Of a stretch of 64,000 bases of DNA, positions 12,999-52,757 are shown piece by piece. The translations under genes and the position numbers were made by a program. The stretch's first letter is position 1. Each line of letters opens with the position of its first letter. The notes beneath the pieces are model-generated. The model was not told where the DNA came from. It worked only from the letters and a program-made list of their open reading frames with translations, and ran no database searches. This DNA comes from Fidelibacterota bacterium (GTDB lineage: Bacteria > Fidelibacterota > Marinisomatia > SCGC-AAA003-L08 > GCA-2689995): contig JACNKR010000063.1 of the NCBI GenBank assembly GCA_014381925.1, positions 68,867 to 132,866 on the forward strand, written 5' to 3'.

Positions 12999-15232
<2,234 letters not shown>

Positions 15233-16289: not shown

Positions 16290-17396
16290 TTATATTCGAA
16301 TTGGCATCAACAGAGATAATATTTCTTTTTCAGATTTATCATCTTTAGGTATAATCATCCCTGCTCCGAGTGATGATTTTAATTTTATAAAAACCTCTTC
16401 TGTAGATTGATGGTTTAACATTTCTTTTAAATAATTAGCATTAAATCCAATAGTAATAGATTCTTCTTTATACTCACAAATAATTTCTTCATGACCAGAG
16501 GTTATATTTTCTGGATCTTCAGTTGTAATAATTGCTTTATTGTTTTCAAAGGTTAATGCAATTTGACGAGTCGTTCTGTTTGAAAAAATAGAAACTCGTT
16601 TGACGGCAGATAATAAATCGTTTTTATTAATAACTGCAATTTTATCATTGTCTGAAGGTATTATGCTTTCATAATCAGGATATTTTTCTCTAATTATTCT
16701 TGAGACCAAAGTTGTATTACCGTTATCAATTTGAATATGATTAGAGCAAAGTATTAATTTTAAATTATTATCTGTTAAGTGAGATTGTAAGATAGTTAAA
16801 AACTTGGTAGGGATTATAACCTGTCCGTTATATGTATTTTCTTCTTTCGTTTTACTAACTCGCTTAACAAGTCTAAATCCATCTGTAGCTACCGATGTAA
16901 TTTGTTTTCCGTCTACATTAATACAAACTCCTTGAAGAGATATTTTCATTTCATCTCTACTTGTTGCATATAATGTATCTTGAATTATTTCATTTAATTC
17001 ATTTTTTTCCATTTTTATAATTACAGGGTTTTCAACACTAGGCATTTCAGGAAATTCATTTGCTGTTTTTCCCATTATACTATAATTCCCAAAATCTGTT
17101 TTTATTTCAACTTTATTTTCGGGATTAATGGATATACTTAAATTTTCATCCGGAATTTCTTGTGTAATTTCTAATAATGTTTTTACAGGAATAGCTAGCT
17201 TTCCTTCTGAAGAAGAAGTAATATCAATTTTAATTAATATTGTTTGTTCTAAATCGGTAGCTCTTAAAAAGAGAGTCTTTTTTTTAATTTCAAACAAAAC
17301 ACAACTTAATATTGGTAATGTAGAGCGAGCTGGTATAACTCTATTTATTTTTTGTAAAGAATTAAGTAATTCTTTTTTTGATAGTTTAAAGTTCAT
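16290..17396 (-). CDS. dnaN: DNA polymerase III beta sliding clamp
   Basis: 368 aa of three-domain clamp length, ending in the C-terminal LMPIRI. Confidence 0.95.
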   Translation of the reverse strand: MNFKLSKKELLNSLQKINRVIPARSTLPILSCVLFEIKKKTLFLRATDLEQTILIKIDITSSSEGKLAIPVKTLLEITQEIPDENLSISINPENKVEIKTDFGNYSIMGKTANEFPEMPSVENPVIIKMEKNELNEIIQDTLYATSRDEMKISLQGVCINVDGKQITSVATDGFRLVKRVSKTKEENTYNGQVIIPTKFLTILQSHLTDNNLKLILCSNHIQIDNGNTTLVSRIIREKYPDYESIIPSDNDKIAVINKNDLLSAVKRVSIFSNRTTRQIALTFENNKAIITTEDPENITSGHEEIICEYKEESITIGFNANYLKEMLNHQSTEEVFIKLKSSLGAGMIIPKDDKSEKEILSLLMPIRI

Positions 17397-17437
17397 AAGT
17401 ATATATCCTTTATATATATTAATTTATAATTAATTAA

Positions 17438-17488
17438 ATTTATTTTTATTATTCTATGTTTAAATGTTAATGATTTATTTTTATTATT
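17438..17488. repeat. two direct copies of ATTTATTTTTATTATT (17438..17453 and 17473..17488)
   Basis: An exact 16-mer is repeated 35 bp apart. This resembles the AT-rich repeats of a DNA-unwinding element. Confidence 0.6.
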
Positions 17489-17542
17489 ACTAATTATCAA
17501 GTTTTATTATAACTTAAAAAAATATAATAAATTAATTTTTCA

Positions 17543-17551
17543 TGTGGATAA
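17543..17551 (-). promoter_or_regulatory. perfect DnaA box (TGTGGATAA = TTATCCACA on minus strand)
   Basis: Exact match to the 9-mer consensus. Confidence 0.7.
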
Positions 17552-17604
17552 CTTTGTTTATAATGGGTATAACTTTTGTTTATTAAACAAACAAAAGAAA
17601 ATTG

Positions 17605-18870
17605 TTAAAAAGTCTGAATAAATATATTTTCTCTCTCTTTAGTTATCCACATTTCAAACTCTTTAGTAATTTTATTATTTTTTGCCATTGCTTCCATTAT
17701 TTGCCATGAGTTTTTTAAAGTAGCTTTTTCGCTTAATTTTCGATCTTTAACAAAAACCAAATAATAACTCTTATTACTTGATTCTATTGGAATTAGTAAT
17801 TCAGGTTTGCCCGAATAATCGTTTAATAATGATAAAATTTCAACAGGAATTGCATCGTCTGGGGTTAGCTCAAACACCCCTGATTGATTTTGAAAATCAG
17901 CTTGATACTGGTAAGCTAAAGAATCAAAGTAAACAATTTTATTATTAGATTGTTGATAGATGGTTCTTAATTTTTCCTCTGTTAGTTTCTTATCATTTTC
18001 CGTTGGAATAACTTCTTGTAAAATATGCCTTACATGAATTTTTTCACCCTGCTTGTCTAATAATTGAATTAAATGAAATCCAAATTTAGTTTTCACAGGC
18101 TCACTAATTTCACCGACATTTAAAGAAAAAGCAACCTCTTCAAATTCGTTAACTAAATTTCCTCGTAAAATATACCCAAGATCACCACCGTTTTGATTTG
18201 AACCAGGATCTTGAGAATATTTTGATGCATAATCCTCAAAGTTATTAAATTGAAGAATACTATCTTTAATAGAAGTTAACAAGTCTATGGCTATATTTTC
18301 AGCATCCCAACTTGGTTGAATAGGTAATTCTATCAACGAAAACTTCGATCTGCTTGGAAGTAGAGGTATAGAATCCTTATACTCATCATAAAAAGTTATA
18401 ATTTCTGCTCTAGAAACAGAAATATTTACCATAAAGCTTTGTTGGTATCTTTCAATTAATAGTCTTTTTTCTATTTCATTCCAAAGCGATAATTTATATT
18501 CATGAATAGATACACCTAAAATATTTTCTAATATACTTTCTGAACCAGCTCGCCGTTTCATCATATCTATTTCATTCTCTAGTGTAGAGCTAATTTCATC
18601 ACCAGATACATCAATAAGCGTATCTTTTTTAGCCATTTCAAAAAGAACATTTTGATTAATTAAAAAATCTAGCACATTGTCATGGTTCTCATCAATATAA
18701 TATGGGTTTTTAGAAAGATCTATTCCGTTTTGCATTGCTTGCATTTGTATTGTTTGTAATACATCACTATAAAGAATTGTATTGCTTCCCACTTTTGCAA
18801 CAACACCATCAACAAATTCATTTTTTGAAAACAGAATAGTAAATATGATTAAAATAAAAAACTTATTCAT
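17605..18870 (-). CDS. SurA-like periplasmic parvulin-type peptidyl-prolyl isomerase
   Basis: 421 aa with a signal peptide. It has a PPIC-type domain, GGDLGYILRGNLVNEFEEVAF...FGFHLIQL. Confidence 0.75.
   Translation of the reverse strand: MNKFFILIIFTILFSKNEFVDGVVAKVGSNTILYSDVLQTIQMQAMQNGIDLSKNPYYIDENHDNVLDFLINQNVLFEMAKKDTLIDVSGDEISSTLENEIDMMKRRAGSESILENILGVSIHEYKLSLWNEIEKRLLIERYQQSFMVNISVSRAEIITFYDEYKDSIPLLPSRSKFSLIELPIQPSWDAENIAIDLLTSIKDSILQFNNFEDYASKYSQDPGSNQNGGDLGYILRGNLVNEFEEVAFSLNVGEISEPVKTKFGFHLIQLLDKQGEKIHVRHILQEVIPTENDKKLTEEKLRTIYQQSNNKIVYFDSLAYQYQADFQNQSGVFELTPDDAIPVEILSLLNDYSGKPELLIPIESSNKSYYLVFVKDRKLSEKATLKNSWQIMEAMAKNNKITKEFEMWITKERENIFIQTF
17643..17651 (+). promoter_or_regulatory. 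perfect DnaA box TTATCCACA
   Basis: Exact match to the 9-mer consensus. It lies 100 bp from the previous box in inverted orientation, inside the 3' end of the SurA-like CDS. Confidence 0.65.
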
Positions 18871-20570
18871 TAATTAATTTCTTCTTGTGTTGTAAAAAAA
18901 TTACTATTTATGGTTACATTATATTTTTCCTTAAGATTATCAAAAGTATCTTCTTTGTGAGAATCTTGATTTTCTTTAGTCAAGGCTGTTTTGATTCTAT
19001 TTTTAACTTTATCATATTCAATTATTTCCTCTGGTAACATTGTTTCAAAATAGATAATTGACCACTTATTGTCCCGAGTTTTAAAAACCTTACTATAATT
19101 ACCCGTATTTATATTTTTAAGGGCCTTGACAATATCTTTATTTTTTGTTTTATCAAAAGGTTGCATTTTACCAGACTTTTTAGGACTTAATATAGAGAAT
19201 GATTTTGCCAAACTAAAGAAATCACCTCCTTTTTGTATTTCAACAAACAAACTATCTGCAAGTTTTTGTCTTTTTACTTTTAAATTAAATACTGAGAACC
19301 TCTCTGGTTCTTTATATTTTGTTTCCTTGTATTTTTCATAATACGCTTTTATATCTTCATCTGTTGGCTCTGGTGCATTATTTACTAAATGCCGAACATA
19401 AGCGTCATATAATATTTCACCCTCAATTCCGCTGTATTGAGCTTGATACCCATAAGATACGTTTAGCTTGTGTGTTTTTCCTCTTTCTATAGCAAGAACT
19501 TGCAAAATTAGTGTTTTTATAGCAAGCCTTAAGCTTTCGCTGTTTGTAATAGAGGGTCTTCTTGAAGGGGAAGATTTAGATAGTTTATTAATTAACCATT
19601 TAACACCATAGCCTTTTTGATTATATATAAAAATAACATCATTGCCTGAATAATCTTTTAATACAGGAACGATATCAACATTATTCATATAGGTGATTTT
19701 TTTTTGATGTTCATTTAAAATACTACCTAGTTTATCTAAAACAGGTTCGTTAAAATAAAAATTAATGTTATCAATTAAATTTTTATCATGTAAATCAGCC
19801 GCCTCTTTTAATTGATTTTTTACTATACCCAAAGAAGAAAACTCAACTTTTTCCAAAAGCTTTTCATCTGGAAAACCCACAGCCTCTGAGGCTCTCTCGT
19901 CTTTAATAAACACAATGTGATAACCATATTTTGTTAAAATAGGGTCTGAAAGATCACCCTTTTTTAATTGAAAAACCTCTTTTTGAAAATCGGGGTCAAC
20001 TTTTCCCCAAGAAATCCAACCAAGGTTTCCTTTGTTGCCTGTAACGCCAGGGTCATCAGAAAAGCTTAATGCTAGACTATCAAAATTAAAAGAATCTCCC
20101 GTTTTTGAAAGCAGCTCGCTTGCGAGTTCATAAGCCTCAATTTTATTTCTATTAAAATCTCCCCCCATTTCTGTCCCATTAAACCCGATTAATATATGGC
20201 TAATATTTAAATCTTTTAAAATATATTTTTTACCCAACTCAATATATTCTAAAGGAACCAATGGAAGGGCTACGAGCTTTTCATATGTTTTATTGACAAA
20301 TAAAAAATCACCCCGATTTCTTAATTTAATAGCCGTTCGAGGGTTTTCTAAGAAATGTTGTTCTTTTGCTTCTAGTACGGCTGTTTTTTTACGAATAAAA
20401 TCATTTAATATTCGTTCTTTCTGATGAGTTTTTATTCTTTCCCATTCAGATTTAGGATAAAATTCAAAAAATTCATTTTCAAAATAAACGTTATCCCCAA
20501 CTGAAACGACTTTCTCATTTGAAAAAAGACATGTTAAAACTAATAATAAAACAAGTAGGTTTCGAACCAC
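18870..20570 (-). CDS. parvulin-type peptidyl-prolyl isomerase (PpiD/SurA-like)
   Basis: 566 aa with a signal/anchor. It has a PPIC domain, GNLGWISWGKVDPDFQKEVF...YGYHIVFI. Confidence 0.7.
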   Translation of the reverse strand: MVRNLLVLLLVLTCLFSNEKVVSVGDNVYFENEFFEFYPKSEWERIKTHQKERILNDFIRKKTAVLEAKEQHFLENPRTAIKLRNRGDFLFVNKTYEKLVALPLVPLEYIELGKKYILKDLNISHILIGFNGTEMGGDFNRNKIEAYELASELLSKTGDSFNFDSLALSFSDDPGVTGNKGNLGWISWGKVDPDFQKEVFQLKKGDLSDPILTKYGYHIVFIKDERASEAVGFPDEKLLEKVEFSSLGIVKNQLKEAADLHDKNLIDNINFYFNEPVLDKLGSILNEHQKKITYMNNVDIVPVLKDYSGNDVIFIYNQKGYGVKWLINKLSKSSPSRRPSITNSESLRLAIKTLILQVLAIERGKTHKLNVSYGYQAQYSGIEGEILYDAYVRHLVNNAPEPTDEDIKAYYEKYKETKYKEPERFSVFNLKVKRQKLADSLFVEIQKGGDFFSLAKSFSILSPKKSGKMQPFDKTKNKDIVKALKNINTGNYSKVFKTRDNKWSIIYFETMLPEEIIEYDKVKNRIKTALTKENQDSHKEDTFDNLKEKYNVTINSNFFTTQEEIN

Positions 20571-20582
20571 AGTTCTCCCTTT

Positions 20583-23558
20583 TTATGTTAAAAATATAGC
20601 TAATAATTTATTTAATATATTATCCACAAAAGAATAGATATCTACCCCTTGCTTTAAATTTATATTTATGTGCAAAATATTATTATCAACAGGTAAAAAA
20701 CGAGGCTTAGCTTTTTGTTCCTCGGTTATTTGGATTAATTTTGGAATGAATAAATCCCCTTTACTTGCAACCCCGCTTGGTAAAAACTCTAACTGTAACG
20801 TATTTTTGATAAACACACATTTTTTTATACCAAGCTTTGCACAATAAACCCTTGTTTTGTAATTATTTATAAGATTCGTTAAGGGTCGTGGTATTGGTCC
20901 ATATCTATTTTCAACTTCATATTCAATTTTAGAAAACCCCTCCAATTCATTGCAACAGGCAAATTTTCTATAAAACTCTAAGCGAATTGATTCCGAACAA
21001 ATATATTCATCAGGAATAGCTACATCAAAATATAGCATTACCGAAACTTCTTCCGGCTCAATTACAAACTTCTTTTTAATAATTTTTTTTTCTTGTAGAA
21101 CCTCTTTAATCATTTTAGAATACAATCCATATCCAATTTGGCTTAATCCCCCGCTTTGTTTATAGCCAAAGATTGAGCCAACCCCTCTTATTTCCATATC
21201 TGATTTAGATATATTATATCCAGAACCTAGAGATGTGTTTTTTTCAATACTTTTAAGACGCTTATATGCGTTTCTAGATAGCCTTAATCCTTTTGGAATA
21301 AGCAGGTAAGCAAAGGCTTGTTTGTCGCTTCTGCCAACCCTTCCTCTGATTTGATAAAGCTGAGACAAGCCAAGGTTGTGGGCTTTATTAATAATAATTG
21401 TGTTTACATTTGGGATATCAATACCCGTTTCAATAATAGAAGTACATACAAGTACATCTATTTCTCCTTCTATAAAATGATACATTGTTTTTTCTAATTG
21501 TTTTTTGGGTTCCTGTCCATGGGCAGGCTTGATGTTTAAACCCGGCAGGGAGGTTTCTAATATTTGAACTATTGAATCAAGAGTTTTAACATTATTATGT
21601 ACAAAAAAAACTTGCCCCCCTCGGTTAATTTCAAACATTATCGCTGATTTTATTAATTGAATATTATAATATTTTATATGAGTTTGAATTGGAAACCGTG
21701 CTTTAGGGGAGGTGTTTATTGTTGATATACTTTTTATCCCAGAAAGCGACATGTGTAAAGTTCTAGGTATAGGTGTTGCCGACATTGATAAAACATCTAT
21801 TTCTTTTTTTAGGGTTAATATTTTTTCTTTTTGTTTTACTCCAAATCGATGCTCTTCATCAATTATTAAAAGACCTAAATCTTTAAAAACAACACGGTCT
21901 GATAATAAGGAGTGGGTGCCAATAATAACATTAACTTCCCCATTTTTCAACCTTAATAATGTTTTATCGTTTATAGACTTAGATTTAAACGCAGATATTA
22001 ACCCAACATCAATAGAATAAGGACTTAATCTTTTATTAAATGTTTGGAAGTGTTGACTTGATAAAATAGTGGTGGGTGCAAGAATCGCAACTTGTTTTCC
22101 AGCATAGGCTGTTCTAAAGGTTGCGCGTAGGGCAATTTCGGTTTTACCAAATCCGACATCTCCACACAACAGTCTGTCCATCGGCTTGTTAGAAAGTAAA
22201 TCACTAGAAATTTCGTCCCAAGAGGTGTTTTGGTCTTTTGTTTCTTCAAATGGAAAAGAGTTAATAAACTGTTTCTCAATATCATCGTCAACCGTAAGAG
22301 GCACTCTATGCGCCGCCGATCTTTCAGCATATCCATACAATAATTCGTCTATAATTTCATTAACATGTTTTTTGGCAGATTTTTTCTTTTTATCCCATAA
22401 GTTTTTTTTTGATAAACTGTCTAGTTTTATTAAGGATTCGTTTTTTGAAGCAAAAAACTCTAAAAGCCCGAGGTTTTGTATAGATACATATATTTTCCCG
22501 CCATCAGAATAATGTAACAGAAGCCTTTCATCTGTATTGTTGTCGTCTCCGAAATCAAACACTCCTTTATATTCAGCGACCCCATGGTGTTTATGTACTA
22601 CGCTATCTCCCTTTGAAAGAGAATTAAAATCAATTAAACTCCTCGTTTTTTCAGCACCTGTATTTAAAACACCCTTATTAACAAACCAAATAGGGACAAT
22701 GATTAGATCTTTAAATAAATATCCTATCGATGTTAAATATTTTGATGTAACCGTTTTTATTTTAAAATCTTTTTTAATAAAGTTTTCATACTTAATTGTT
22801 TGAAAGCGAGACGACCCATTTGAAATTTTATTGTTTTTGGTCGGGATGTTTTTTTCAAGAATAACAATTTGTGTATTTGTTGAAACTAAGCCTGAAAGGC
22901 TTTGGTTTCCCTTTTCCCCCTTTGGCAGCAACCTATTAATGCTTGTTTCGGTTGTGGTTATTTGTGATTCAACATCAAATAAAAAAAACTCAACTTCTTC
23001 AGATAAAAAGCTAATCCGCAAAGGTGTATTTCTATTAAAAGGAAAGACATCAATCATCCCTCCTTTTAATGAGCACTCACCCTTTAATGTCACAACATCA
23101 ACAAAAGAAAAAGAAGAGTCTTTTAGCCAAGAAACAAGCTTGTCATAGCTTGTATTATTATCAAAGGTAAAAATATTTTGAGGTGCAACCTCAAAGCATT
23201 TACTATAAAAGGCTTCTTTTGAAGAAAACAATACCTTGGGTAGCAACCCCGCCGATGCTTGAGAATATATTTTATCCACAGACTCTGAAAAGCCAGATTT
23301 AAACCCTGCAGGGGAAGCCTGGTCTATAGAGCTTTTTACTATAAAAAAACCAAGATCATTATCCGCCGAAACAGTTTCGCTATGTATGTTAATTAAAAAA
23401 TCTTCACTAGATATAAATACAAAGCTTTCTGGTAGCTGTTTACACGAATAAATGAATAGCTCAATGGGAAAACCTGTTAAGTCTATTTTTCCTGAGGCAA
23501 GTTTTTGCTTTAAACTGTCTATATGCTGACTAAAACCACAATGTTTCACGTGAAACAT
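20583..23558 (-). CDS. mfd: transcription-repair coupling factor Mfd
   Basis: 991 aa with helicase motifs GDVGFGKTE and DEEHRFG plus a TRG-like region. The start codon lies inside the parS palindrome, so the start is uncertain. Confidence 0.9.
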   Translation of the reverse strand: MFHVKHCGFSQHIDSLKQKLASGKIDLTGFPIELFIYSCKQLPESFVFISSEDFLINIHSETVSADNDLGFFIVKSSIDQASPAGFKSGFSESVDKIYSQASAGLLPKVLFSSKEAFYSKCFEVAPQNIFTFDNNTSYDKLVSWLKDSSFSFVDVVTLKGECSLKGGMIDVFPFNRNTPLRISFLSEEVEFFLFDVESQITTTETSINRLLPKGEKGNQSLSGLVSTNTQIVILEKNIPTKNNKISNGSSRFQTIKYENFIKKDFKIKTVTSKYLTSIGYLFKDLIIVPIWFVNKGVLNTGAEKTRSLIDFNSLSKGDSVVHKHHGVAEYKGVFDFGDDNNTDERLLLHYSDGGKIYVSIQNLGLLEFFASKNESLIKLDSLSKKNLWDKKKKSAKKHVNEIIDELLYGYAERSAAHRVPLTVDDDIEKQFINSFPFEETKDQNTSWDEISSDLLSNKPMDRLLCGDVGFGKTEIALRATFRTAYAGKQVAILAPTTILSSQHFQTFNKRLSPYSIDVGLISAFKSKSINDKTLLRLKNGEVNVIIGTHSLLSDRVVFKDLGLLIIDEEHRFGVKQKEKILTLKKEIDVLSMSATPIPRTLHMSLSGIKSISTINTSPKARFPIQTHIKYYNIQLIKSAIMFEINRGGQVFFVHNNVKTLDSIVQILETSLPGLNIKPAHGQEPKKQLEKTMYHFIEGEIDVLVCTSIIETGIDIPNVNTIIINKAHNLGLSQLYQIRGRVGRSDKQAFAYLLIPKGLRLSRNAYKRLKSIEKNTSLGSGYNISKSDMEIRGVGSIFGYKQSGGLSQIGYGLYSKMIKEVLQEKKIIKKKFVIEPEEVSVMLYFDVAIPDEYICSESIRLEFYRKFACCNELEGFSKIEYEVENRYGPIPRPLTNLINNYKTRVYCAKLGIKKCVFIKNTLQLEFLPSGVASKGDLFIPKLIQITEEQKAKPRFLPVDNNILHININLKQGVDIYSFVDNILNKLLAIFLT
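20620..20628 (+). promoter_or_regulatory. perfect DnaA box TTATCCACA
   Basis: Exact 9-mer inside the 3' end of mfd. Confidence 0.5.
23272..23280 (+). promoter_or_regulatory. perfect DnaA box TTATCCACA
   Basis: Exact 9-mer inside the 5' part of mfd. Confidence 0.5.
23542..23557. promoter_or_regulatory. parS centromere-like site TGTTTCACGTGAAACA
   Basis: A perfect 16-bp palindrome identical to the ParB-binding parS consensus. It extends to an 18-bp palindrome, ATGTTTCACGTGAAACAT (23541..23558), at the mnmG/mfd junction. Confidence 0.8.
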
Positions 23559-25352
23559 TTATTTTGAAAGTGCTATTGCAATGGAGGCAACATCTGAAGG
23601 GTTAACCCCTGCTATTCTTGAGGCCTGGCCTAGTGTTTCAGGTTTTAATCTTGTTAGCTTCTCTCTCGCCTCGTTAGATAGATTGTATATTTTATTGTAT
23701 GAAAAGTTTACATTAATTATTTTTTCTTCAAGAGATTTAGTTTTTTTTATTCTTTCCTCTTCTCTTATAATATATCCCTTATATTTAATAAACGTTTCTA
23801 CAGAGAATAAAACTTCAGCAGGAATAGAGTTAAAACCTTTCTCATTGGAAAGGTCTAAAAAAGAAATATCTCCCCTTAGAATGCTTTTATAAATAGAGTT
23901 CTGCTTTCTCTGGTTTTTGGTTAATATGCTCATTACATTGTTGTAGTTATTAATAAACTCTTCATAGGTAGAAGCTTGTACCTTCGTTAGTAAATTATGT
24001 TTAATTGCAGTTGGAGACAGCCGTAAGACCGCCGTGTCAGACCTTAAAAGAAGTCTATGTTCTGCGCTTGCAGTAAACATTCTGTATGGCTCGTTGATTT
24101 CTTTTGTTGTAAGGTCGTCTATTAATACTCCTATATATGCCTGATCTCTTGTAAGGACAAAACTTTTTTTATTTTCGATATATTTACATGCATTTATTCC
24201 AGCGATTAACCCTTGTGCCGCCGCCTCTTCATAACCTGAAGTGCCGTTAATTTGTCCTGCTGAAAATAAGCCTAAAACTGTTTTAGACTCTAGGGATCTT
24301 TTTAATTGTGATGGAACCAAATAGTCGTACTCAATTGCATAGCCAGGCCTAATGAGTTCGACATTTTTAAAGGCAGGGATTGTTTTTAGTGCAGATGTTT
24401 GTGTTTCTTTAGGCAGGCTTGTTGAAAATCCATTTAAATATATTTGTTTAGAATTTACCCATTCAGGCTCTAAAAACAGCTGGTGAAAAGGTTTATTTGA
24501 AAATCTAAAAACTTTATCTTCTATACTTGGACAATAACGAGGCCCCACTCCTTCTATTTTTCCAGAAAACATAGCAGATAGATGCATTTTTTTTAATATA
24601 TGTTTATGTGTTCGTGTAGATGTGTTTACAATATTACAATTATCATTTCTAGGAAAAAAGGGTCGCTTTGTATTTGTTGAGAAGGGAAAAGGGTTTTTCT
24701 CTCCTTTAGAAATTTCTGTTTTACTCCAATCAATTGAATTACTTAAAAGACGAGGCGGAGTTCCTGTTTTTAATCTCCCTGTTGTAAAGCCATGTTTGCT
24801 TAATGCCTCTGTTAATCCTGTTGATGGTATTTCGCCCATTCGTCCTGCCCTAAAAGTGGTATCTCCAATATGAATAAGTCCATTTAAAAAAGTTCCTGCG
24901 GTAATTATTAGGGCAGAGCATTTAATTTTCTTTTTAGATTTTAAAATAACATGAGAAACGGCTCCTCTGATTGTGTCAAAATCAACAACTTCACCTTTTA
25001 TTATGTTTATGTTCTTATTTGTTTTAACAAAGTTATTAATATAATTTGCATATTGAAGTTTATCAACTTGAGCTCGTGGACTCCAAACAGCCCGCCCTTT
25101 TGATTTATTTAATGTTTTGAACTGTAAACACGCTTTGTCAGCAAAAAACCCCATTGCACCACCAAGTGCATCAATTTCTTTAACAAGATGACCTTTTGCA
25201 AGACCCCCAATTGCGGGGTTACAAGACATTCTTCCAAGTGCTTTTGGGTCAAGTGTAATAATAGTAGCTTTAAAACCCATTCTTGAAATTGCAAGGGCAG
25301 CCTCTATCCCCGCATGTCCACCTCCAGCAATAATAATATTTTCATCTTTCAA
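23559..25352 (-). CDS. mnmG: tRNA uridine 5-carboxymethylaminomethyl modification enzyme MnmG (GidA)
   Basis: 597 aa with the N-terminal FAD motif IIAGGGHAGIEAA. Confidence 0.97.
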   Translation of the reverse strand: MKDENIIIAGGGHAGIEAALAISRMGFKATIITLDPKALGRMSCNPAIGGLAKGHLVKEIDALGGAMGFFADKACLQFKTLNKSKGRAVWSPRAQVDKLQYANYINNFVKTNKNINIIKGEVVDFDTIRGAVSHVILKSKKKIKCSALIITAGTFLNGLIHIGDTTFRAGRMGEIPSTGLTEALSKHGFTTGRLKTGTPPRLLSNSIDWSKTEISKGEKNPFPFSTNTKRPFFPRNDNCNIVNTSTRTHKHILKKMHLSAMFSGKIEGVGPRYCPSIEDKVFRFSNKPFHQLFLEPEWVNSKQIYLNGFSTSLPKETQTSALKTIPAFKNVELIRPGYAIEYDYLVPSQLKRSLESKTVLGLFSAGQINGTSGYEEAAAQGLIAGINACKYIENKKSFVLTRDQAYIGVLIDDLTTKEINEPYRMFTASAEHRLLLRSDTAVLRLSPTAIKHNLLTKVQASTYEEFINNYNNVMSILTKNQRKQNSIYKSILRGDISFLDLSNEKGFNSIPAEVLFSVETFIKYKGYIIREEERIKKTKSLEEKIINVNFSYNKIYNLSNEAREKLTRLKPETLGQASRIAGVNPSDVASIAIALSK

Positions 25353-25354
25353 GT

Positions 25355-26704
25355 TTATTTACCAATGCAAAATGATGAGAATAAATTGTTAAATATATCT
25401 TCGTTAGAAATTTTCCCCAATGTTTCTTCAAGAATTTCCGTAAACTCATGTAAGAGAGATGATAGCAAAACAAGGTCGGGTTCGTTATTTAATATGTTAA
25501 TTGCTTCGTTTAAAATACCAACAGTGCTTAATATTAATGCATGCTGTCTTTCGCTCATTACCACCGGATCTTTGGAGTAATTATAGCTAAGGCTATCCTT
25601 TAGGTGTGTGGATAACTCTGTGTATAACTGGTCAATCCCCGTGTTTGTTTTTGTAGATATTTTGATTAAATTTGTGCCTTTAATGTCGTTCAGGTTGAGA
25701 TCTGACTTGGTGTGAACAAGTATAATTTTTTTATTTAATAAATCCATGTTTTGTTGTTTATAAAAATTTAATGGATTCTCTTCATCAAGTAATAAAATAA
25801 TGTCAGCATTCTTAAATTCTTGCATTGATTTTTGAATTCCTAGTAATTCAACTTCATTATTTGATTCAATAATACCCGCGGTATCAATAATGCAAACAGG
25901 AATACCAGAAATTTCCAACCATGTTTCAATTGTATCTCTTGTTGTGCCGGGAATATTTGTAACAATTGCTTTTTCTGAACCAGATAAACGATTAAACAAT
26001 GACGATTTCCCCGCATTTGGTTTTCCAAATAAAACAACTCGAACCCCAACATTAATAGTCTTACCAAAACGGGAGCTGCTAATTATATTTTTTATGGTAT
26101 ATAAAATATTATTTAAAATTAATTTAATTTCTGAAGTTGTAGTAAAAGAAACTTCATCTTCGGCAAAATCTAATTCATGCTCTAAAATAGTTAAGAGAGT
26201 AATTACTTCTTTTCTAATATTTAATAAAGATTGTGATAAATCGCCGTTTAGATTGTTTAATTGAACTTTTGCATTTTTTGATGTTTTAGATGAAATTAAT
26301 CCAGAAATTGCCTCGGCTTGAATTAAATCAATTTTCCCATTTATAAATGCTCTATAAGAGAACTCGCCAGGCGAAGCCTGGCGAACTTTTAACGAATAAA
26401 GAAGGGCAAGTATTGCCTTTGGAATAAACTCACCTCCGTGGCTAGAAATTTCTAATATGTCTTCTCCGGTAAAACTATTTGGACCTTTAAAGTATGTTAT
26501 TAAACAATTATCTAGTTTGTTTCGATTAATGTCAACTATTGAATTATAATTTACATAGCGAGGCTGTGGAGGAGTTTTTTGATTTGTAATTCTTTTATAT
26601 AGAGAAATTAGATTTTGACCTGAAACTCTAATAACAGCAATGGCGCCTATTCCTGGAGGAGTTGCGAGTGCAACAATATCATCCTGAACAAGAGGCTTAA
26701 TCAT
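25355..26704 (-). CDS. mnmE: tRNA modification GTPase MnmE (TrmE)
   Basis: 449 aa with G-domain GKPNAGKSSLFN and DTAG motifs. It ends in the C-terminal FCIGK. Confidence 0.97.
   Translation of the reverse strand: MIKPLVQDDIVALATPPGIGAIAVIRVSGQNLISLYKRITNQKTPPQPRYVNYNSIVDINRNKLDNCLITYFKGPNSFTGEDILEISSHGGEFIPKAILALLYSLKVRQASPGEFSYRAFINGKIDLIQAEAISGLISSKTSKNAKVQLNNLNGDLSQSLLNIRKEVITLLTILEHELDFAEDEVSFTTTSEIKLILNNILYTIKNIISSSRFGKTINVGVRVVLFGKPNAGKSSLFNRLSGSEKAIVTNIPGTTRDTIETWLEISGIPVCIIDTAGIIESNNEVELLGIQKSMQEFKNADIILLLDEENPLNFYKQQNMDLLNKKIILVHTKSDLNLNDIKGTNLIKISTKTNTGIDQLYTELSTHLKDSLSYNYSKDPVVMSERQHALILSTVGILNEAINILNNEPDLVLLSSLLHEFTEILEETLGKISNEDIFNNLFSSFCIGK
25607..25615 (-). promoter_or_regulatory. 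perfect DnaA box (TGTGGATAA)
   Basis: Exact 9-mer inside the 3' part of mnmE. Confidence 0.5.
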
Positions 26705-29097: not shown

Positions 29098-29432
29098 CAA
29101 TTATCCTAATTCTGTGTCTAAAATAGCCGAGTAATTTATAAAAGATTAACTATATAACCCTCAAGTTTAATTTACAAAAAATTTATTGAAATTTTGGTTG
29201 ATTTAGGCAGTAGATATTTTTAAGATTTAATTAATTTACTATTGATATTTTCTAATATTCATAAGGCTGTCCAATTGTTAGAGAGGTCAACACTATAATT
29301 GATGTATTTAAAATGGTACCATCAATCCTTTAAAATATATCCAACCTTATCGATTTTATTTATAATTATGTTCAATACGAGCTATAAACATTAATTTTTT
29401 TTCTATAACAGATGTATAATATTAAATTTCAA

Positions 29433-33134: not shown

Positions 33135-33536
33135 ATGAAAAAAATTAATAAAACAAATGAACAATGGAAATGTGAATTGTCCCCTCTAGAATTTCATATC
33201 ACCCGAGAAGGAGGAACCGAAGCCCCTTTTTCAAACAAATTTGTAAATCATTTTGAGAATGGTACATATCAATGTGTGTGTTGTCGTGCAGATTTATTTA
33301 TTTCAAATCATAAATATAATTCAAAAACAGGATGGCCAAGTTATAATCAACCAATTAATGAAAATGTATTAACTGAAATTGAAGATAAGTCTTTAGGGAT
33401 AATTCGTACAGAAATTAAATGTTCTAATTGTGATGCACACTTAGGACATGTATTTCCCGATGAAAGCCAAAAAACAGGTCGACGGTACTGAATGAATTCA
33501 GTCGCTTTGAGGTTCAAAGAAAAAAAATCAGAGTGA
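33135..33536 (+). CDS. msrB: peptide-methionine (R)-S-oxide reductase MsrB with in-frame TGA (candidate selenocysteine) at the catalytic Cys position
   Basis: ATG 33135 gives MKKINKTNEQWKCELSPLEFHITREGGTEAPF. Two CxxC zinc motifs are present. The track ORF stops at TGA 33489..33491 in ...TGRRY-TGA-MNSVALRFKEKKSE. The extension ends at TGA 33534..33536 in a GTGA overlap with the next gene. Confidence 0.75.
33505..33519 (+). other. candidate SECIS-like stem-loop downstream of msrB UGA
   Basis: CUUUG-AGGUU-CAAAG forms a 5-bp stem starting 13 nt after the UGA. The apical loop contains GGU. The stem is weak and AU-rich. Confidence 0.35.
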
Positions 33537-35614
33537 AGAAAATACTTTTAACGGGTATTATTCTTTTTTTGGTTAGTTCGTGCTCACATAGTTTGCGATT
33601 TGTTGGTGAACACAAACATAGAGAAGTTACTATTTATAGAGATAATTGGGGTGTTCCCCATATTTATGGCAAAACAGATGCAGACGTTGCATTTGGATTG
33701 GCTTATGCACATGCTGAAGACGATTTAGAAAATATCGTCTTTTCATTATTAGCGGGAAGAGGGAAACTTGGTGAATATTTTGGTAAGGATCTCGCACCAA
33801 ATGATTATCTCGTTCAGCTTTTTGGTTTATGGGATAATCTCAAAAATAATTATAATAAACTCGATAGTGAAACAATTAAACTTTGCAATGCCTATGCCGA
33901 AGGGTTTAATCATTATTTATTAAAACATCAACCAAAAGATATACCTAAAGAAGTATATCCGGTCAAAGGTGAAGATTTAGTTGCCGGGTTTATGCATAAA
34001 ACGCCATTTTTTTATGGATTAAATAAAGTGCTCTCCCAAGTAATGGTAGATAAATACCCACAAGAAACAAAAATGTATTCTTATTTTCCCGAGGTTTATG
34101 GTGAATCAATGGGTTCTAATGTATTTGCTGTTTCACCATCCCGAAGTAAAAATGGGCACACCTTGTTTATGAGCAATACCCATCAGCCATGGAATGGTCC
34201 TACCGCATGGTATGAAGTACATTTACATAGCGAAGAGGGGTGGAATACGGTTGGCGGATTATTTCCTGGTTCTCCAATTATTTTAGTAGGACATAATGAA
34301 AATTTAGGATGGTCACATACTGTAAATAATCCAGATTTAATTGATGTTTATGAATTGGAGTTGTCAGGGGATGACCTTTTAAAATATAAAGTTGATGATG
34401 AATGGCTTGATCTTGAAGAAATACCTATTTCATTTAAAGTCAAATTAATCGGACCTATAAAATTAAATATAACTCAAACAGGCTATCGTTCAATATTTGG
34501 ACCTGTTTTTGAAAGTGAATCCGGTAAAAAGTATGCAATTCGATTTCAAGGCATGGATGATGTTCGCGTTGTAGAACAATGGTATAAAATGAACAAGGCA
34601 TCAAATTTTAATGAATGGAAAGATGCAATGTCGATAACGGCTATACCAAGTTTTAATACGGGCTACGCAGATAAAGATGGAAATATATTCTATGTCTATA
34701 ATGCTAAATTTCCTACTCGTTCGCCCGGGTATAATTGGCGAGGATTATTACCTGGCAATACCAAAGAAACACTCTGGGGAAATAATATTTCATTTTCAGA
34801 GCTTCCACAAGTAATGAACCCAGCCTCTGGATTTATTCAAAATTGTAATAGTTCTCCTTTCGAAACAACAGATGGCAATGATAATCCCGAGGAATCTCAT
34901 TTCCCTGAATGGCTAGGCATTGAAACGATTATGACAAATAGAGCATTACGGTCTTTAGAATTATTTGGAGATGATAAACATATTTCATATGATGAAATGA
35001 TGAAATATAAATATGACTTAAAATATTCTGAAAAATCAAATATTGTTAAAATTATTAAAAGAACAGATGAAATTATAACAAATGATCCACTTTTATTTTC
35101 AGCCATACATATTTTACAAAAATGGAATTTAGAAACAAATATTCAAAACCCACATACTGCATTTGTAATTTTTAGTCTTTTTAAATTTATTGAAGATAAC
35201 CCCTCGCAAATTAATTTAAATGAATTAGAAGATCATCTTTTGCTCAATGCAAAAAAATTCAATAAATGGTATGGAGGATTAGAAGTTCCATGGGGAGAAG
35301 TTAATCGATTAATTCGTGGAAATATCAATTTACCCTTAAATGGAGGGCCAGATATAAACCATGCCATATATGGATCTCCACAAAAAAATGGGATATTAAA
35401 AGGGGTAGCGGGCGACTGTTTTATAATTTATGCTGAATGGGACAAGAATGGAAGAGTCAGCTCACAAAGTATTCATCAATTTGGTTCTACACAAAACATG
35501 GATTCTAAACATTATAATGATCAGGCAATTTTATTTAGCCAGAAAAAGATGAAGCCTGTTTTATTTGAACTATATGAAATTAAAGAAAAAGCAGAACAAA
35601 TTTATAAACCCTAA
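33533..35614 (+). CDS. S45 penicillin-amidase-family Ntn-hydrolase acylase (PvdQ/aculeacin-acylase-like)
   Basis: 693 aa with a GTG start and a lipoprotein-like signal (VSSC). It has VTIYRDNWGVPHIYG and a MGSNVFAV nucleophile-Ser motif. Confidence 0.8.
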   Translation: MKKILLTGIILFLVSSCSHSLRFVGEHKHREVTIYRDNWGVPHIYGKTDADVAFGLAYAHAEDDLENIVFSLLAGRGKLGEYFGKDLAPNDYLVQLFGLWDNLKNNYNKLDSETIKLCNAYAEGFNHYLLKHQPKDIPKEVYPVKGEDLVAGFMHKTPFFYGLNKVLSQVMVDKYPQETKMYSYFPEVYGESMGSNVFAVSPSRSKNGHTLFMSNTHQPWNGPTAWYEVHLHSEEGWNTVGGLFPGSPIILVGHNENLGWSHTVNNPDLIDVYELELSGDDLLKYKVDDEWLDLEEIPISFKVKLIGPIKLNITQTGYRSIFGPVFESESGKKYAIRFQGMDDVRVVEQWYKMNKASNFNEWKDAMSITAIPSFNTGYADKDGNIFYVYNAKFPTRSPGYNWRGLLPGNTKETLWGNNISFSELPQVMNPASGFIQNCNSSPFETTDGNDNPEESHFPEWLGIETIMTNRALRSLELFGDDKHISYDEMMKYKYDLKYSEKSNIVKIIKRTDEIITNDPLLFSAIHILQKWNLETNIQNPHTAFVIFSLFKFIEDNPSQINLNELEDHLLLNAKKFNKWYGGLEVPWGEVNRLIRGNINLPLNGGPDINHAIYGSPQKNGILKGVAGDCFIIYAEWDKNGRVSSQSIHQFGSTQNMDSKHYNDQAILFSQKKMKPVLFELYEIKEKAEQIYKP

Positions 35615-49972: not shown

Positions 49973-50310
49973 TCAATTGCTTTTCGGATTAATATTCCTG
50001 TTAATCCAGAAACACCACCTATAATTATGGGTAAAATTAATATAATAATTGCTAGCATGAATGAATTATTTACATTCATCATTGTTGCAACTCTAGCCAT
50101 TAAAATTTCTCCACCAATTATCCATCTATAAAATAAAATAATTGCCCATGTAATTGTTAATGTGGAGCTTCCTATCTGAATAGCAGATATATTACTTTCC
50201 GCCATTGCCCCGATTATTACACAATAAATTACACCAGCCCACCATGGTAAAAAATATAATACAGGAAATAATATTAAAACAAAAACAGACATTTTTTTAA
50301 TGTAATTCAT
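49969..50310 (-). CDS. hypothetical small multi-TM membrane protein
   Basis: 113 aa with 3-4 TM. Its ATG overlaps the acylase TGA stop (ATGA). Confidence 0.4.
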   Translation of the reverse strand: MNYIKKMSVFVLILFPVLYFLPWWAGVIYCVIIGAMAESNISAIQIGSSTLTITWAIILFYRWIIGGEILMARVATMMNVNNSFMLAIIILILPIIIGGVSGLTGILIRKAID

Positions 50311-52757
50311 GAATTTTCTCCATTAATAATGATAACTTTTCCATTAATATCTTCAGGGTTTGAACTTGAATTAATATCTCTTAGTTCTCCAGCTCTCCAT
50401 TCTTCAAGCATATTATCATAATATTTACTTCCAGGATATCCAGATTGACCTCCAGGTAAAATCCCTTTTGCTTTTGGAGGTGAGGACATTTCAACAATAT
50501 ATCTCCACGAAGGACCAAAATGTTTTCGAGTTGCATTTGGAATTAATTTTCCACCACCTGTTGATAAATTTTCGACACCAAATCCTGGAATTTTAGCAAG
50601 ATGTAAAATATCTGTTCCTCTATAATTCCCCCAGAACCATAATTCAGATAATTGACCCACTTCTTGAGTTAACAAATTAATTGTATTTTCAAAACTTTTA
50701 TATACTAAGTCAGAAAAAAGTTCTTTTTTATTTGTATTAATGTTGTCAATCCATTTAGAATTTTGTTCTTTTGTAATTAACCGTTCCAATCGTGCATAGT
50801 CTGGCCAAAGAATTTCATCATATGATTTTCCTAGTTCATCTTCCCAAACAAGATTTTCAAATTGATCAATCCATTCATTATATATTGTTGGTGCAATTTT
50901 ATCAGCATCAAAGAAATAATTCCACTTAATTAACTCAGCAACAGGTTGAATAAAATGTGGTTTTAATAATGTATCATTTAAAACAGACAGAAAAACAGGA
51001 AGTACTCTTTCTGCCATTAAATTTTTATTATCCGTTTGAATTTCTATAAAATCATCAAATGTTGCATTTTTTAATGATGTTAAGTGTTGATTAATTCGCT
51101 CTCCTCTAAATGATTCTACAAACCATGGTCCTAAATAATATGGATAGTTTTCATCCGTTATATGTTGATTTGCAGAACTTACAAATCCTCTTTTAGGGTT
51201 TTTTATATGTGCCTTTTCATTATGCGGAATTGCATCATTCCAATTATATTGAGGATTTGTTCCATCCATCACAAAGCGTCCTTGGTTTTTCCATTTTTGT
51301 GGTGTATTTCCGGCATGCCAAATTGCAATATTTCCATCAATGTCTGCATATACAAAATTTTGAACGGGGCATGTAAAATATTGAAGTGCATCGACATAAT
51401 CTTGATAATTTTTTGCCTTATTTAATTCATAAAATGTTTTACTTTCTGCACTTGAATCATGAGCTAACCATCTCAATGCTCTTCCAACGGACAACATTTC
51501 TCCGCTTTGATTTCGTTCATTGTGCATTCTTTTTGTTTGGCCTTCATGCGTCCAAACAACAGGGCCAAAATGAGTATAAATTACAGTATCAATGAAGCTT
51601 TTTTCACCTCTAATTTTTATCTCTTCAATTTTCTTTTCTGTTGTTAGCCATTCATTATCATAAAAATATTGATTCATTTTATTTGATTTAAATACAATAT
51701 CATACCAATCCCAAACATCATCACCACCATTTGTTTCGCCCCAAGCAATATAATCATTAAATCCACTAATAACACATGGTCCTCCAGGGAGAGAGGCACC
51801 ATAAACATTAAACTCAGGGGTATTTAAATGAATTTGATACCAAATATTTGGTAATGTTAGACCTAAATGTGGGTCATTTGACAAAAGAGGAAACCCTGAT
51901 TTTGTTTTTGATCCGTCAACAGCCCAATTATTACTTCCAATTCGTGCATCCGGCTGTATCAAAACCTTATCTTGATATGGGTTTGCACGATAAAGTGAAT
52001 CAGGAAATGGTATTGATTTAATAGGTTTTGCAAATGGAGTCTCTTTAGGAATAATTGGATCTAAATAATTAGGAAACTCTGGATACAAATCGTTTAAATC
52101 TTCCATACCAATTTTATCCCATAATTTATTAAAATCAAGGTCTGAAGATCTACCACTTAAACTAAATGCCATTGTTTTAAGAAATAATAAAGTCTTTAAG
52201 GGTGTCCATTTTTCAGGTTTATAATCTAATATTTTATATTCAATTGGATATTGATCCCAATTTAAAGAATTAATATAAGCATTAACTCCGTCAGCATAAG
52301 CCTCTATACCACTATATACATTTTTATGTTTCATTGTTTCTATTAGGCCTTTTTCAGCAGAATAGACCATTCCTATTCGTCGTTGGTATTGATCAAAAGG
52401 TAATGCCTTTGGGCCAATAATTTCTGAAATTCTTCCACCTGCGGCCATTGTTTGAAACTCCATTTGCCAAAGCCTATCAAAAGCAGTGATATATCCCTGT
52501 GTAAAACATAAATCATAATCATTTTTTGCAAAAATATGGGGCACATGATTTTCGTCAATTATTAATTTGACTTCATTCTGAATTTCATCAAAGTTTAATA
52601 TATTTTTATTATGAATATCTGAATTGACAAGGGATAAAAAACCATGAAATGGATCTAAAAACGTTGCTAATGGGGGGATATTTCCCATTTTATTATTAAG
52701 TAAAATTGTTATTCCGATAAGAAAAAAAATGCTAATAATTGCTTTAATATATTTCAT
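50307..52757 (-). CDS. S45 penicillin-amidase-family Ntn-hydrolase acylase (penicillin/AHL acylase-like)
   Basis: 816 aa with a signal anchor, HVPHIFA and a GSNNWAV nucleophile-Ser motif. Its ATG overlaps the ccmD stop (ATGA). Confidence 0.8.
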   Translation of the reverse strand: MKYIKAIISIFFLIGITILLNNKMGNIPPLATFLDPFHGFLSLVNSDIHNKNILNFDEIQNEVKLIIDENHVPHIFAKNDYDLCFTQGYITAFDRLWQMEFQTMAAGGRISEIIGPKALPFDQYQRRIGMVYSAEKGLIETMKHKNVYSGIEAYADGVNAYINSLNWDQYPIEYKILDYKPEKWTPLKTLLFLKTMAFSLSGRSSDLDFNKLWDKIGMEDLNDLYPEFPNYLDPIIPKETPFAKPIKSIPFPDSLYRANPYQDKVLIQPDARIGSNNWAVDGSKTKSGFPLLSNDPHLGLTLPNIWYQIHLNTPEFNVYGASLPGGPCVISGFNDYIAWGETNGGDDVWDWYDIVFKSNKMNQYFYDNEWLTTEKKIEEIKIRGEKSFIDTVIYTHFGPVVWTHEGQTKRMHNERNQSGEMLSVGRALRWLAHDSSAESKTFYELNKAKNYQDYVDALQYFTCPVQNFVYADIDGNIAIWHAGNTPQKWKNQGRFVMDGTNPQYNWNDAIPHNEKAHIKNPKRGFVSSANQHITDENYPYYLGPWFVESFRGERINQHLTSLKNATFDDFIEIQTDNKNLMAERVLPVFLSVLNDTLLKPHFIQPVAELIKWNYFFDADKIAPTIYNEWIDQFENLVWEDELGKSYDEILWPDYARLERLITKEQNSKWIDNINTNKKELFSDLVYKSFENTINLLTQEVGQLSELWFWGNYRGTDILHLAKIPGFGVENLSTGGGKLIPNATRKHFGPSWRYIVEMSSPPKAKGILPGGQSGYPGSKYYDNMLEEWRAGELRDINSSSNPEDINGKVIIINGENS

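Follow-up and report, generated by a model that had tools for sequence, protein, structure and literature searches.

Origins of the Bacillus subtilis type are two-part, with DnaA boxes on both sides of dnaA, and the dnaA-dnaN spacer carries boxes 6 and 7, DnaA-trios and the unwinding element. In cyanobacteria such as Synechococcus elongatus PCC 7942, Anabaena PCC 7120 and Cyanothece 51142, the origin (oriC) lies beside dnaN, while dnaA is located elsewhere. Clusters of several DnaA boxes away from dnaA are also found outside origins, as in datA of Escherichia coli and the DnaA-box clusters of B. subtilis. A further layout is that of Helicobacter pylori, in which dnaA splits the origin into oriC1 and oriC2 (PMC8235120). 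No published origin description was found for the phylum Marinimicrobia (SAR406/Fidelibacterota). Here, we describe a candidate oriC of this phylum in a stretch of 64,000 nucleotides (hereafter the window) from contig JACNKR010000063.1 of assembly GCA_014381925.1. The candidate is the gap between dnaN, which encodes the beta clamp, and a gene for a SurA-like PpiC isomerase. The source genome belongs to Marinimicrobia, with a guanine plus cytosine (GC) content of about 30%, and its beta-clamp homologues are named Marinimicrobia or Fidelibacterota.

We give roughly two chances in three to the reading that this gap is where chromosome replication starts in this Marinimicrobia genome, and that it corresponds to the dnaN-side half (boxes and unwinding element) of an ancestral origin whose two parts lay on either side of dnaA. 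Origin activity is supported by comparison with relatives, the contribution of the window itself being limited to anatomy. A scan of species-representative genomes provided the relatives used for comparison, namely about 45 Marinimicrobia loci and an outgroup (KSB1 and allies), with locus labels of the form L0xx. A previous sequence-only reading of the window had proposed an oriC directly upstream of dnaN with dnaA elsewhere. This placement is now favoured by the phylum-wide occurrence of the box cluster, its independence from dnaN, a polarity switch, a parS site and the poor dnaA loci of relatives.

With regard to the described systems, the locus resembles the B. subtilis spacer in that co-oriented boxes end in a tandem pair followed by an AT-rich tract, just upstream of dnaN. 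In addition, dnaA still sits between two box clusters in the outgroup loci L052-L055. It differs in that dnaA is off-locus (16.5 kb upstream in some relatives, absent from the window) and in that the upstream neighbour is the surA-like gene. The arrangement is similar to that of the cyanobacterial origins, which nevertheless belong to an unrelated phylum with an unrelated history, whereas the neighbours observed here (rpmH to mnmG, parS, gyrBA) are the canonical origin set in a rearranged order. The likeness to H. pylori is one of layout, two box clusters with coding DNA between them; the dnaA-side boxes of Marinimicrobia relatives are 16 kb off and look autoregulatory. In contrast to datA-type clusters, which are without an adjacent unwinding element and are not located at a polarity switch, this site exhibits a minimum of duplex stability and, in relatives, a polarity switch. 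By analogy, the site is probably like the B. subtilis dnaA-dnaN spacer in its working and like the cyanobacterial dnaN-adjacent origin in its layout.

The gap is 208 bp long with 12.5% GC, and it separates the start of dnaN from the stop codon of the surA-like gene. Its elements and the two flanking genes are the following.

16290-17396, minus strand: dnaN (beta clamp; Pfam beta-clamp domains), which heads the run dnaN-recF-dciA-gyrB-gyrA-yggS.
17397-17604, no strand: candidate oriC, the entire surA-like/dnaN intergenic region, proposed from its composition and from the 16-fold box enrichment in the homologous gap of 29 relatives.
17405-17410, minus strand: ribosome-binding site AAAGGA of dnaN, conserved in close relatives.
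17438-17453, no strand: 16-mer copy closest to dnaN (AATAATAAAAATAAAT in dnaN orientation), within the conserved AT-rich tract just downstream of the half-boxes; candidate unwinding element.
17457-17472, minus strand: degenerate half-boxes in tandem, CATTAACA-TTTAAACA, equivalent at low GC to 'module C', the pair of abutting boxes that relatives carry ahead of the AT-rich tract.
17473-17488, no strand: second exact copy of the 16-mer, not conserved in L093 and L094.
17543-17551, minus strand: perfect DnaA box TTATCCACA (dnaN orientation), corresponding to the phylum's most conserved 'module B' box, which is followed by ...CACAT(A/G)AA...TTTA.
17555-17563, minus strand: DnaA-box-like 9-mer TTATAAACA with two mismatches, 12 bp start-to-start from the perfect box; position kept in L007, L093 and L094.
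17564-17572, minus strand: DnaA-box-like 9-mer TTATACCCA with two mismatches, abutting the 17555-17563 9-mer; position kept in the same three loci.
17605-18870, minus strand: SurA-like PpiC isomerase gene, the conserved upstream neighbour, which retains the box cluster when dnaN is displaced.

The A/T-rich gap, the 16-mers, the tandem degenerate copy and the perfect boxes at 17543-17551 and 17643-17651, which the sequence-only reading had reported, were all recovered at the same positions. The window contains the exact 16-mer ATTTATTTTTATTATT only twice, at 17438 and 17473, and such an exact repeat is expected in about 0.5% of Markov-1 random sequences of matched length and dinucleotide composition. 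Read in dnaN orientation, the tandem degenerate copy forms a 21-bp direct repeat (AATAAACAAAAGTTATACCCATT / ATAAACAAAGTTATCCACATG). The 100 bp starting at 17411 contain 7% GC and, with a nearest-neighbour free energy of -92.5 kcal/mol, constitute the least stable duplex of the window, four standard deviations under the mean stability (-120 +/- 6.7 kcal/mol); the runner-up stretch reaches -100.2 kcal/mol. Two features expected of an oriC, a DnaA-box cluster and an easily melted AT-rich element beside the boxes, are present in the gap. The earlier description of the 16-mers as a DUE-like element (DUE, DNA unwinding element) holds in part: they lie within the stability minimum, but only the copy at 17438 is conserved. 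The copy at 17473-17488 is a lineage-specific duplication. According to the basal-unwinding-system rule, a box pair is followed by a spacer of at most 16 bp and at least three DnaA-trios, the boxes having at most two mismatches and the trinucleotides a central A on the trio strand (PMC8287927). In the gap, five N-T-N triplets (N-A-N on the complement) start 11 nt past the perfect box, on the same strand as the box, a pattern that is expected by chance at about 90% A+T.

These features could in principle be a chance cluster in an AT-rich intergenic spacer, as one-mismatch boxes are common at 30% GC (35 observed in the window against 25 expected) and AT-rich repeats arise easily. However, the window holds 5 perfect boxes against 0.8 expected, the probability of the 16-mer repeat is only about 0.005, and the box positions are conserved across diverged relatives, with a 16- to 62-fold enrichment in the gap across the phylum. 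Chance is therefore a very improbable explanation, effectively refuted by the positional conservation and the phylum-wide enrichment.

All five perfect boxes of the window are located in 17543-25615, within 8 kb upstream of dnaN. One of them lies in mnmE at 25607, with a one-mismatch neighbour at 25619, and another is the inverted box in the surA-like gene:

17643-17651, plus strand: perfect DnaA box, inverted, in the 3' end of the surA-like coding sequence (codons E-M-W-I, Glu-Met-Trp-Ile); candidate box whose conservation is explained by coding.

The mnmE and surA-like boxes recur in relatives. They were considered as functional boxes and rejected, their conservation being explained by the conserved codons L-S-T and M-W-I, respectively. 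Conserved Met-Trp-Ile codons thus account for the inverted box, which the sequence-only reading had counted among the origin features, and its function as a box is putative. The region upstream of rpmH (29098-29432) was also considered as an alternative origin and rejected, as it contains no box with at most one mismatch and is less AT-rich (26% GC).

Box enrichment was counted in the 29 loci with the surA-like/dnaN arrangement, a box being defined by at most one mismatch. The gap holds 81 boxes, 24 of them perfect, in 10.7 kb, compared with 257 (20 perfect) in 551 kb elsewhere, which corresponds to a 16-fold enrichment for boxes and a 62-fold enrichment for perfect boxes. The orientation is the same as that of dnaN for 75 of the 81 gap boxes, and both the TTATCCACA and the TTTTCCACA variants are present in the gaps of relatives. 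Most Marinimicrobia loci share the arrangement of the window, with no dnaA inside 10 kb. When aligned, the gaps of 15 loci resolve into four modules: boxes directly after the stop codon of the surA-like gene; the best conserved module, a box pair spaced 21 bp start-to-start (12 bp between the boxes) and followed by TAAAG...CTTTAA; two abutting boxes with an AT-rich tract immediately after; and, further downstream, a promoter-like module for dnaN. The gap of the window is compressed, at 208 bp compared with about 400 bp in relatives. It was also aligned with those of relatives of 97%, 77% and 75% DnaN identity. The box-like triple at 17543-17572, the half-boxes at 17457-17472 and the adjacent AT tract, including the 17438 copy of the 16-mer, are conserved in this alignment, whereas the sequence between these elements has diverged.

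Regarding the role of the cluster, loci in which dnaN has moved away from it were compared. In L021, ten boxes, three of them perfect, directly follow the surA-like gene, and dnaN lies 7 kb farther without a box in front; L040 and L025 show the same pattern with smaller insertions between the cluster and dnaN. As the cluster stays beside the surA-like gene in these three loci and dnaN is left without boxes, the cluster is not a dnaN promoter element. In a subclade with unrelated genes upstream of dnaN, no boxes are found at that place.

These loci bear on a second explanation, according to which the boxes serve only for the DnaA-dependent control of the dnaN promoter, or are a DnaA-titrating relic of a former origin, with replication starting elsewhere. 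The overlap of the half-boxes at 17457-17472 with the -35-like TTAACA of a possible dnaN promoter is consistent with this explanation, as are the sigma-70-like matches in the gap, although these are not above shuffles (7 compared with 4.8 +/- 2.6). The absence of a skew switch in the window, its single perfect box in the gap and the few canonical boxes of its close low-GC relatives also speak for it. On the other hand, the cluster remains with the surA-like gene when dnaN is boxless, the larger gaps of relatives contain a separate dnaN promoter module downstream of the boxes, and the gap is the window's minimum of duplex stability with a parS nearby. Moreover, strand polarity switches at the cluster in relatives, including those of 75-77% DnaN identity, and the dnaA loci of relatives offer no better candidate. 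We therefore consider this explanation unlikely. Regulation of dnaN in addition to origin activity is a different matter: as the gap is compressed and the boxes overlap a plausible dnaN promoter, DnaA probably regulates dnaN too.

Strand composition was informative in relatives at four-fold sites. On the dnaN-sense strand, their T/A skew ranges from +0.17 to +0.30 upstream of the cluster (10 kb) and from -0.07 to -0.15 downstream (11 kb). In 29 of the 30 loci, the position of the flip coincides exactly with the cluster (Wilcoxon p = 9e-9, a value that overstates independence, since the loci are related). It holds for both gene orientations, and downstream genes on the minus strand have a skew of +0.22 when read along their coding strand, so that the flip is a property of the DNA strand rather than of the genes. 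In L021, L040 and L025, the flip occurs at the box cluster rather than at dnaN, and in the subclade without boxes upstream of dnaN there is no flip. In the relatives of 75-77% DnaN identity it is present, though weaker. No second switch was observed out to -21 kb in the upstream-extended loci, through genes of both orientations. The magnitude of the polarity decays from about 0.5 beside the gap to about 0-0.2 at 20 kb (L008-L051, L087-L096). In the same loci, purine-rich words such as AAGAAGA show a skew of +0.7 on the coding strand downstream and 0 upstream. A de novo search for polar words similar to FtsK-orienting polar sequences (KOPS) returned only purine-rich words that mirror the A/T polarity, and no specific motif.

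The GC skew, which had been suggested as a check on the origin, proved uninformative in this phylum, with no consistent switch. The whole-sequence GC skew of the window merely follows gene orientation, and its minima at about 32 kb and 59 kb are gene-strand switches without boxes. At four-fold sites, the window has too few G/C positions for GC skew and exhibits no T/A polarity.

A perfect parS site is found at the mnmG/mfd junction:

23542-23557, no strand: perfect parS TGTTTCACGTGAAACA, 5.9 kb from the gap, an origin-domain marker conserved in the phylum and the outgroup.

The parS consensus and the location of parS sites in the origin domain are described in PMC7022226. Almost every Marinimicrobia locus, like the outgroup, has one or two perfect parS at the same junctions, 6-8 kb upstream; in the remainder of the 1.7 Mb of fetched sequence, they are essentially absent. 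The site of the window overlaps the start codon of mfd, so that the parS palindrome encodes MFHVKHC, the N-terminus of Mfd. A second parS occurs in one clade at the junction of mnmE and mnmG, and in the outgroup two perfect parS flank mnmG. As for terminus markers, a scan of +/-10 kb for the XerCD dif 28-mer gave no dif-like site: compared with the dif sequences of E. coli and B. subtilis, the best candidates have 9-11 mismatches and are scattered outside the gap, and the phylum's own dif consensus may differ.

The position of dnaA allows the history of the locus to be outlined. In the outgroup, mnmG, mnmE and yidC lie on the opposite strand and are followed by boxes, dnaA, boxes and dnaN. In Marinimicrobia, an inverted rpmH-rnpA-yidC-mnmE-mnmG block, mfd and the PpiC genes are upstream on the strand of dnaN, joined by dnaA in some lineages; in others, including that of the window, dnaA is elsewhere. 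Between the surA-like gene and dnaN, the box cluster with its AT-rich tract was retained. Relatives in which dnaA was located have it either on the strand of dnaN, 16.5 kb upstream, or at a locus not linked to dnaN. In the window, a six-frame motif search, Pfam scans and tblastn with the KSB1 DnaA all failed to find dnaA, which extends to the whole 64 kb the earlier remark that dnaA is not adjacent.

It had been proposed that a stronger box cluster next to dnaA would refute an origin at dnaN. The dnaA loci of relatives provide no such cluster, their upstream gap holding just 2-4 boxes at the dnaA start, and these boxes look like autoregulatory sites. The unlinked dnaA locus has no parS nearby, and its dnaA gap is not AT-rich in L097 and L099 (lineages of 39-45% GC). 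A box pair, TGTGAATAAGTTGTGAATAA, stands immediately before the dnaA start in relatives. L087 and L089 (4.3-21 kb) exhibit a same-strand block of dnaA, response regulator, histidine kinase, ssb, queF, rpmH and further genes to surA, with dnaA at its head. Even when dnaA is unlinked, it forms a conserved trio with the response regulator and histidine kinase genes, and the gene before this trio, on the opposite strand, encodes an M28 peptidase (L097 and L099, about 10 kb).

Several observations weigh against an origin at the gap. In relatives, 85-100% of the coding sequence within 21 kb upstream points to the gap, including dnaA, ssb, rpmH, rnpA and yidC where present, and about 70% of the upstream 47 kb does so in the window. 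The rpsF-rpsR-rplI operon at +8 kb in L093 and L094 also points to it. If replication starts at the gap, all these genes are head-on to it. The caution that the sequence-only reading attached to head-on genes was hence justified and even too mild, as the conserved upstream block in its entirety is directed at the site, and so is the sign of the A/T skew; this keeps the verdict uncertain. Relatives show a switch of reversed sign compared with a classical origin, with the strand running toward the site being T-rich on both sides. The same script applied to the E. coli oriC gave the classical result, in which the plus strand changes from A-rich on the left to T-rich on the right. Furthermore, the window and its 97% relative show no detectable T/A switch (difference 0.03 +/- 0.05), the four-fold-site GC skew across relatives is heterogeneous in sign without a consistent switch, and the low-GC clade that includes the window has few canonical boxes, with relaxed boxes such as TTATNAACA instead.

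These orientations raise a third explanation: if the classical rules of T-rich leading strands and co-directional genes hold, forks would converge here, and the site would be a terminus or a fork barrier on an old origin that has kept dnaN, gyrBA, rpmH, parS and, in some lineages, dnaA beside it, with initiation elsewhere. This is what the T/A sign, opposite to that of the E. coli oriC in the same pipeline, would suggest, and the upstream genes, rpmH, ssb and the rpsF operon downstream in L093 and L094 all point to the site. Leading strands are usually G- and T-rich, and A>T has been reported only for PolC-carrying phyla (PMC3174206, PMC4070872), so that the literature on T>A outside these phyla also speaks for converging forks. 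In contrast, the conserved perfect parS mark an origin domain, a DnaA-box cluster with an AT-rich tract occupies the ancestral origin position, and the scan of +/-10 kb gave no dif-like site. Between -21 and +11 kb there is also no switch of the opposite sense, which excludes a nearby origin with a barrier at the gap. We know of no precedent for dnaA, dnaN, gyrBA, rpmH and parS at a terminus. Fork convergence is consequently rather doubtful, somewhat more so than promoter control or a relic. Two other potential indicators of fork direction were of little use: there are no tRNAs in the loci and only one in the window, and calibration of the skew sign by ribosomal-protein operons was limited to an operon present in two closely related loci only.

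The interpretation of the gap as an origin was retained because parS is conserved nearby, because co-oriented boxes end at a melt-prone tract at the ancestral position, because the dnaA loci of relatives hold no comparable cluster and because there is no dif-like site. We take the reversed A/T polarity and the head-on block to be unexplained properties of the phylum and not evidence against an origin.

If the gap is an origin, the following mechanism can be proposed. DnaA would bind the co-oriented tandem boxes at 17543-17572, one of which is perfect, and the half-boxes at 17457-17472, oligomerise toward the adjacent tract of 7-12% GC at about 17411-17511 and then melt it. Helicase loading would come next, possibly via the DciA route. 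A DciA-family gene (PF05258) is located at 14954-15232, between recF and gyrB, and its presence in the dnaN operon suggests helicase loading of the DciA type rather than of the DnaC/DnaI type. The same boxes would probably also tune dnaN expression.

With regard to the wider neighbourhood, the minus-strand gene order from about 29.1 kb to 9.8 kb is rpmH, rnpA, yidC, mnmE, mnmG, mfd, two PpiC/SurA-like isomerase genes, the gap, dnaN, recF, dciA, gyrB, gyrA and yggS. The gene map of the window and its parS thereby comprise the origin-linked elements dnaN-recF-gyrBA, rpmH-rnpA-yidC-mnmEG and parS. This neighbourhood is the canonical origin gene set, yet it is one-stranded and without dnaA. After yggS, the window carries genes for TauE, an ABC-type (ATP-binding cassette) ATPase, a glyoxalase and TerC. 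It differs there from L093 and L094 (75-77% DnaN identity), in which yggS is followed on the opposite strand, at 18.0-19.3 kb, by rpsF-rpsR-rplI and an H+-pyrophosphatase gene, both directed toward the gap.

Within the gap, 17573-17597 holds a perfect inverted repeat with 9-bp arms (CTTTTGTTT / AAACAAAAG) around a loop of 7 nt. The repeat starts 8 nt beyond the surA-like stop codon, lies directly against the first box-like 9-mer and is shared by the 97% relative alone; it could serve as a weak terminator of the upstream operon. An Rfam scan of the gap matched no known RNA family. Elsewhere, the window contains two penicillin-amidase family paralogues on opposite strands (33533-35614 and 50307-52757), an AcrB/HlyD/OEP efflux cluster (39-45 kb) and a cytochrome c maturation cluster (52.8-57.7 kb).

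The present analysis provides a sequence-level origin assignment for SAR406/Marinimicrobia, an abundant and almost entirely uncultured ocean phylum. Such an assignment is of use in origin databases and in coverage-based estimates of growth rate, and closed genomes can be rotated and checked with it. Origin finders based on GC skew would fail in this phylum, whereas a single site is indicated by four-fold A/T skew, DnaA boxes and parS alike. If the assignment is true, a block of core genes of 16-21 kb, comprising dnaA, ssb, rpmH, rnpA, yidC and others, would be kept head-on to replication across the phylum. The presumptive leading strand would then be A-rich without GC skew, a pattern that has been reported only for PolC-carrying bacteria.

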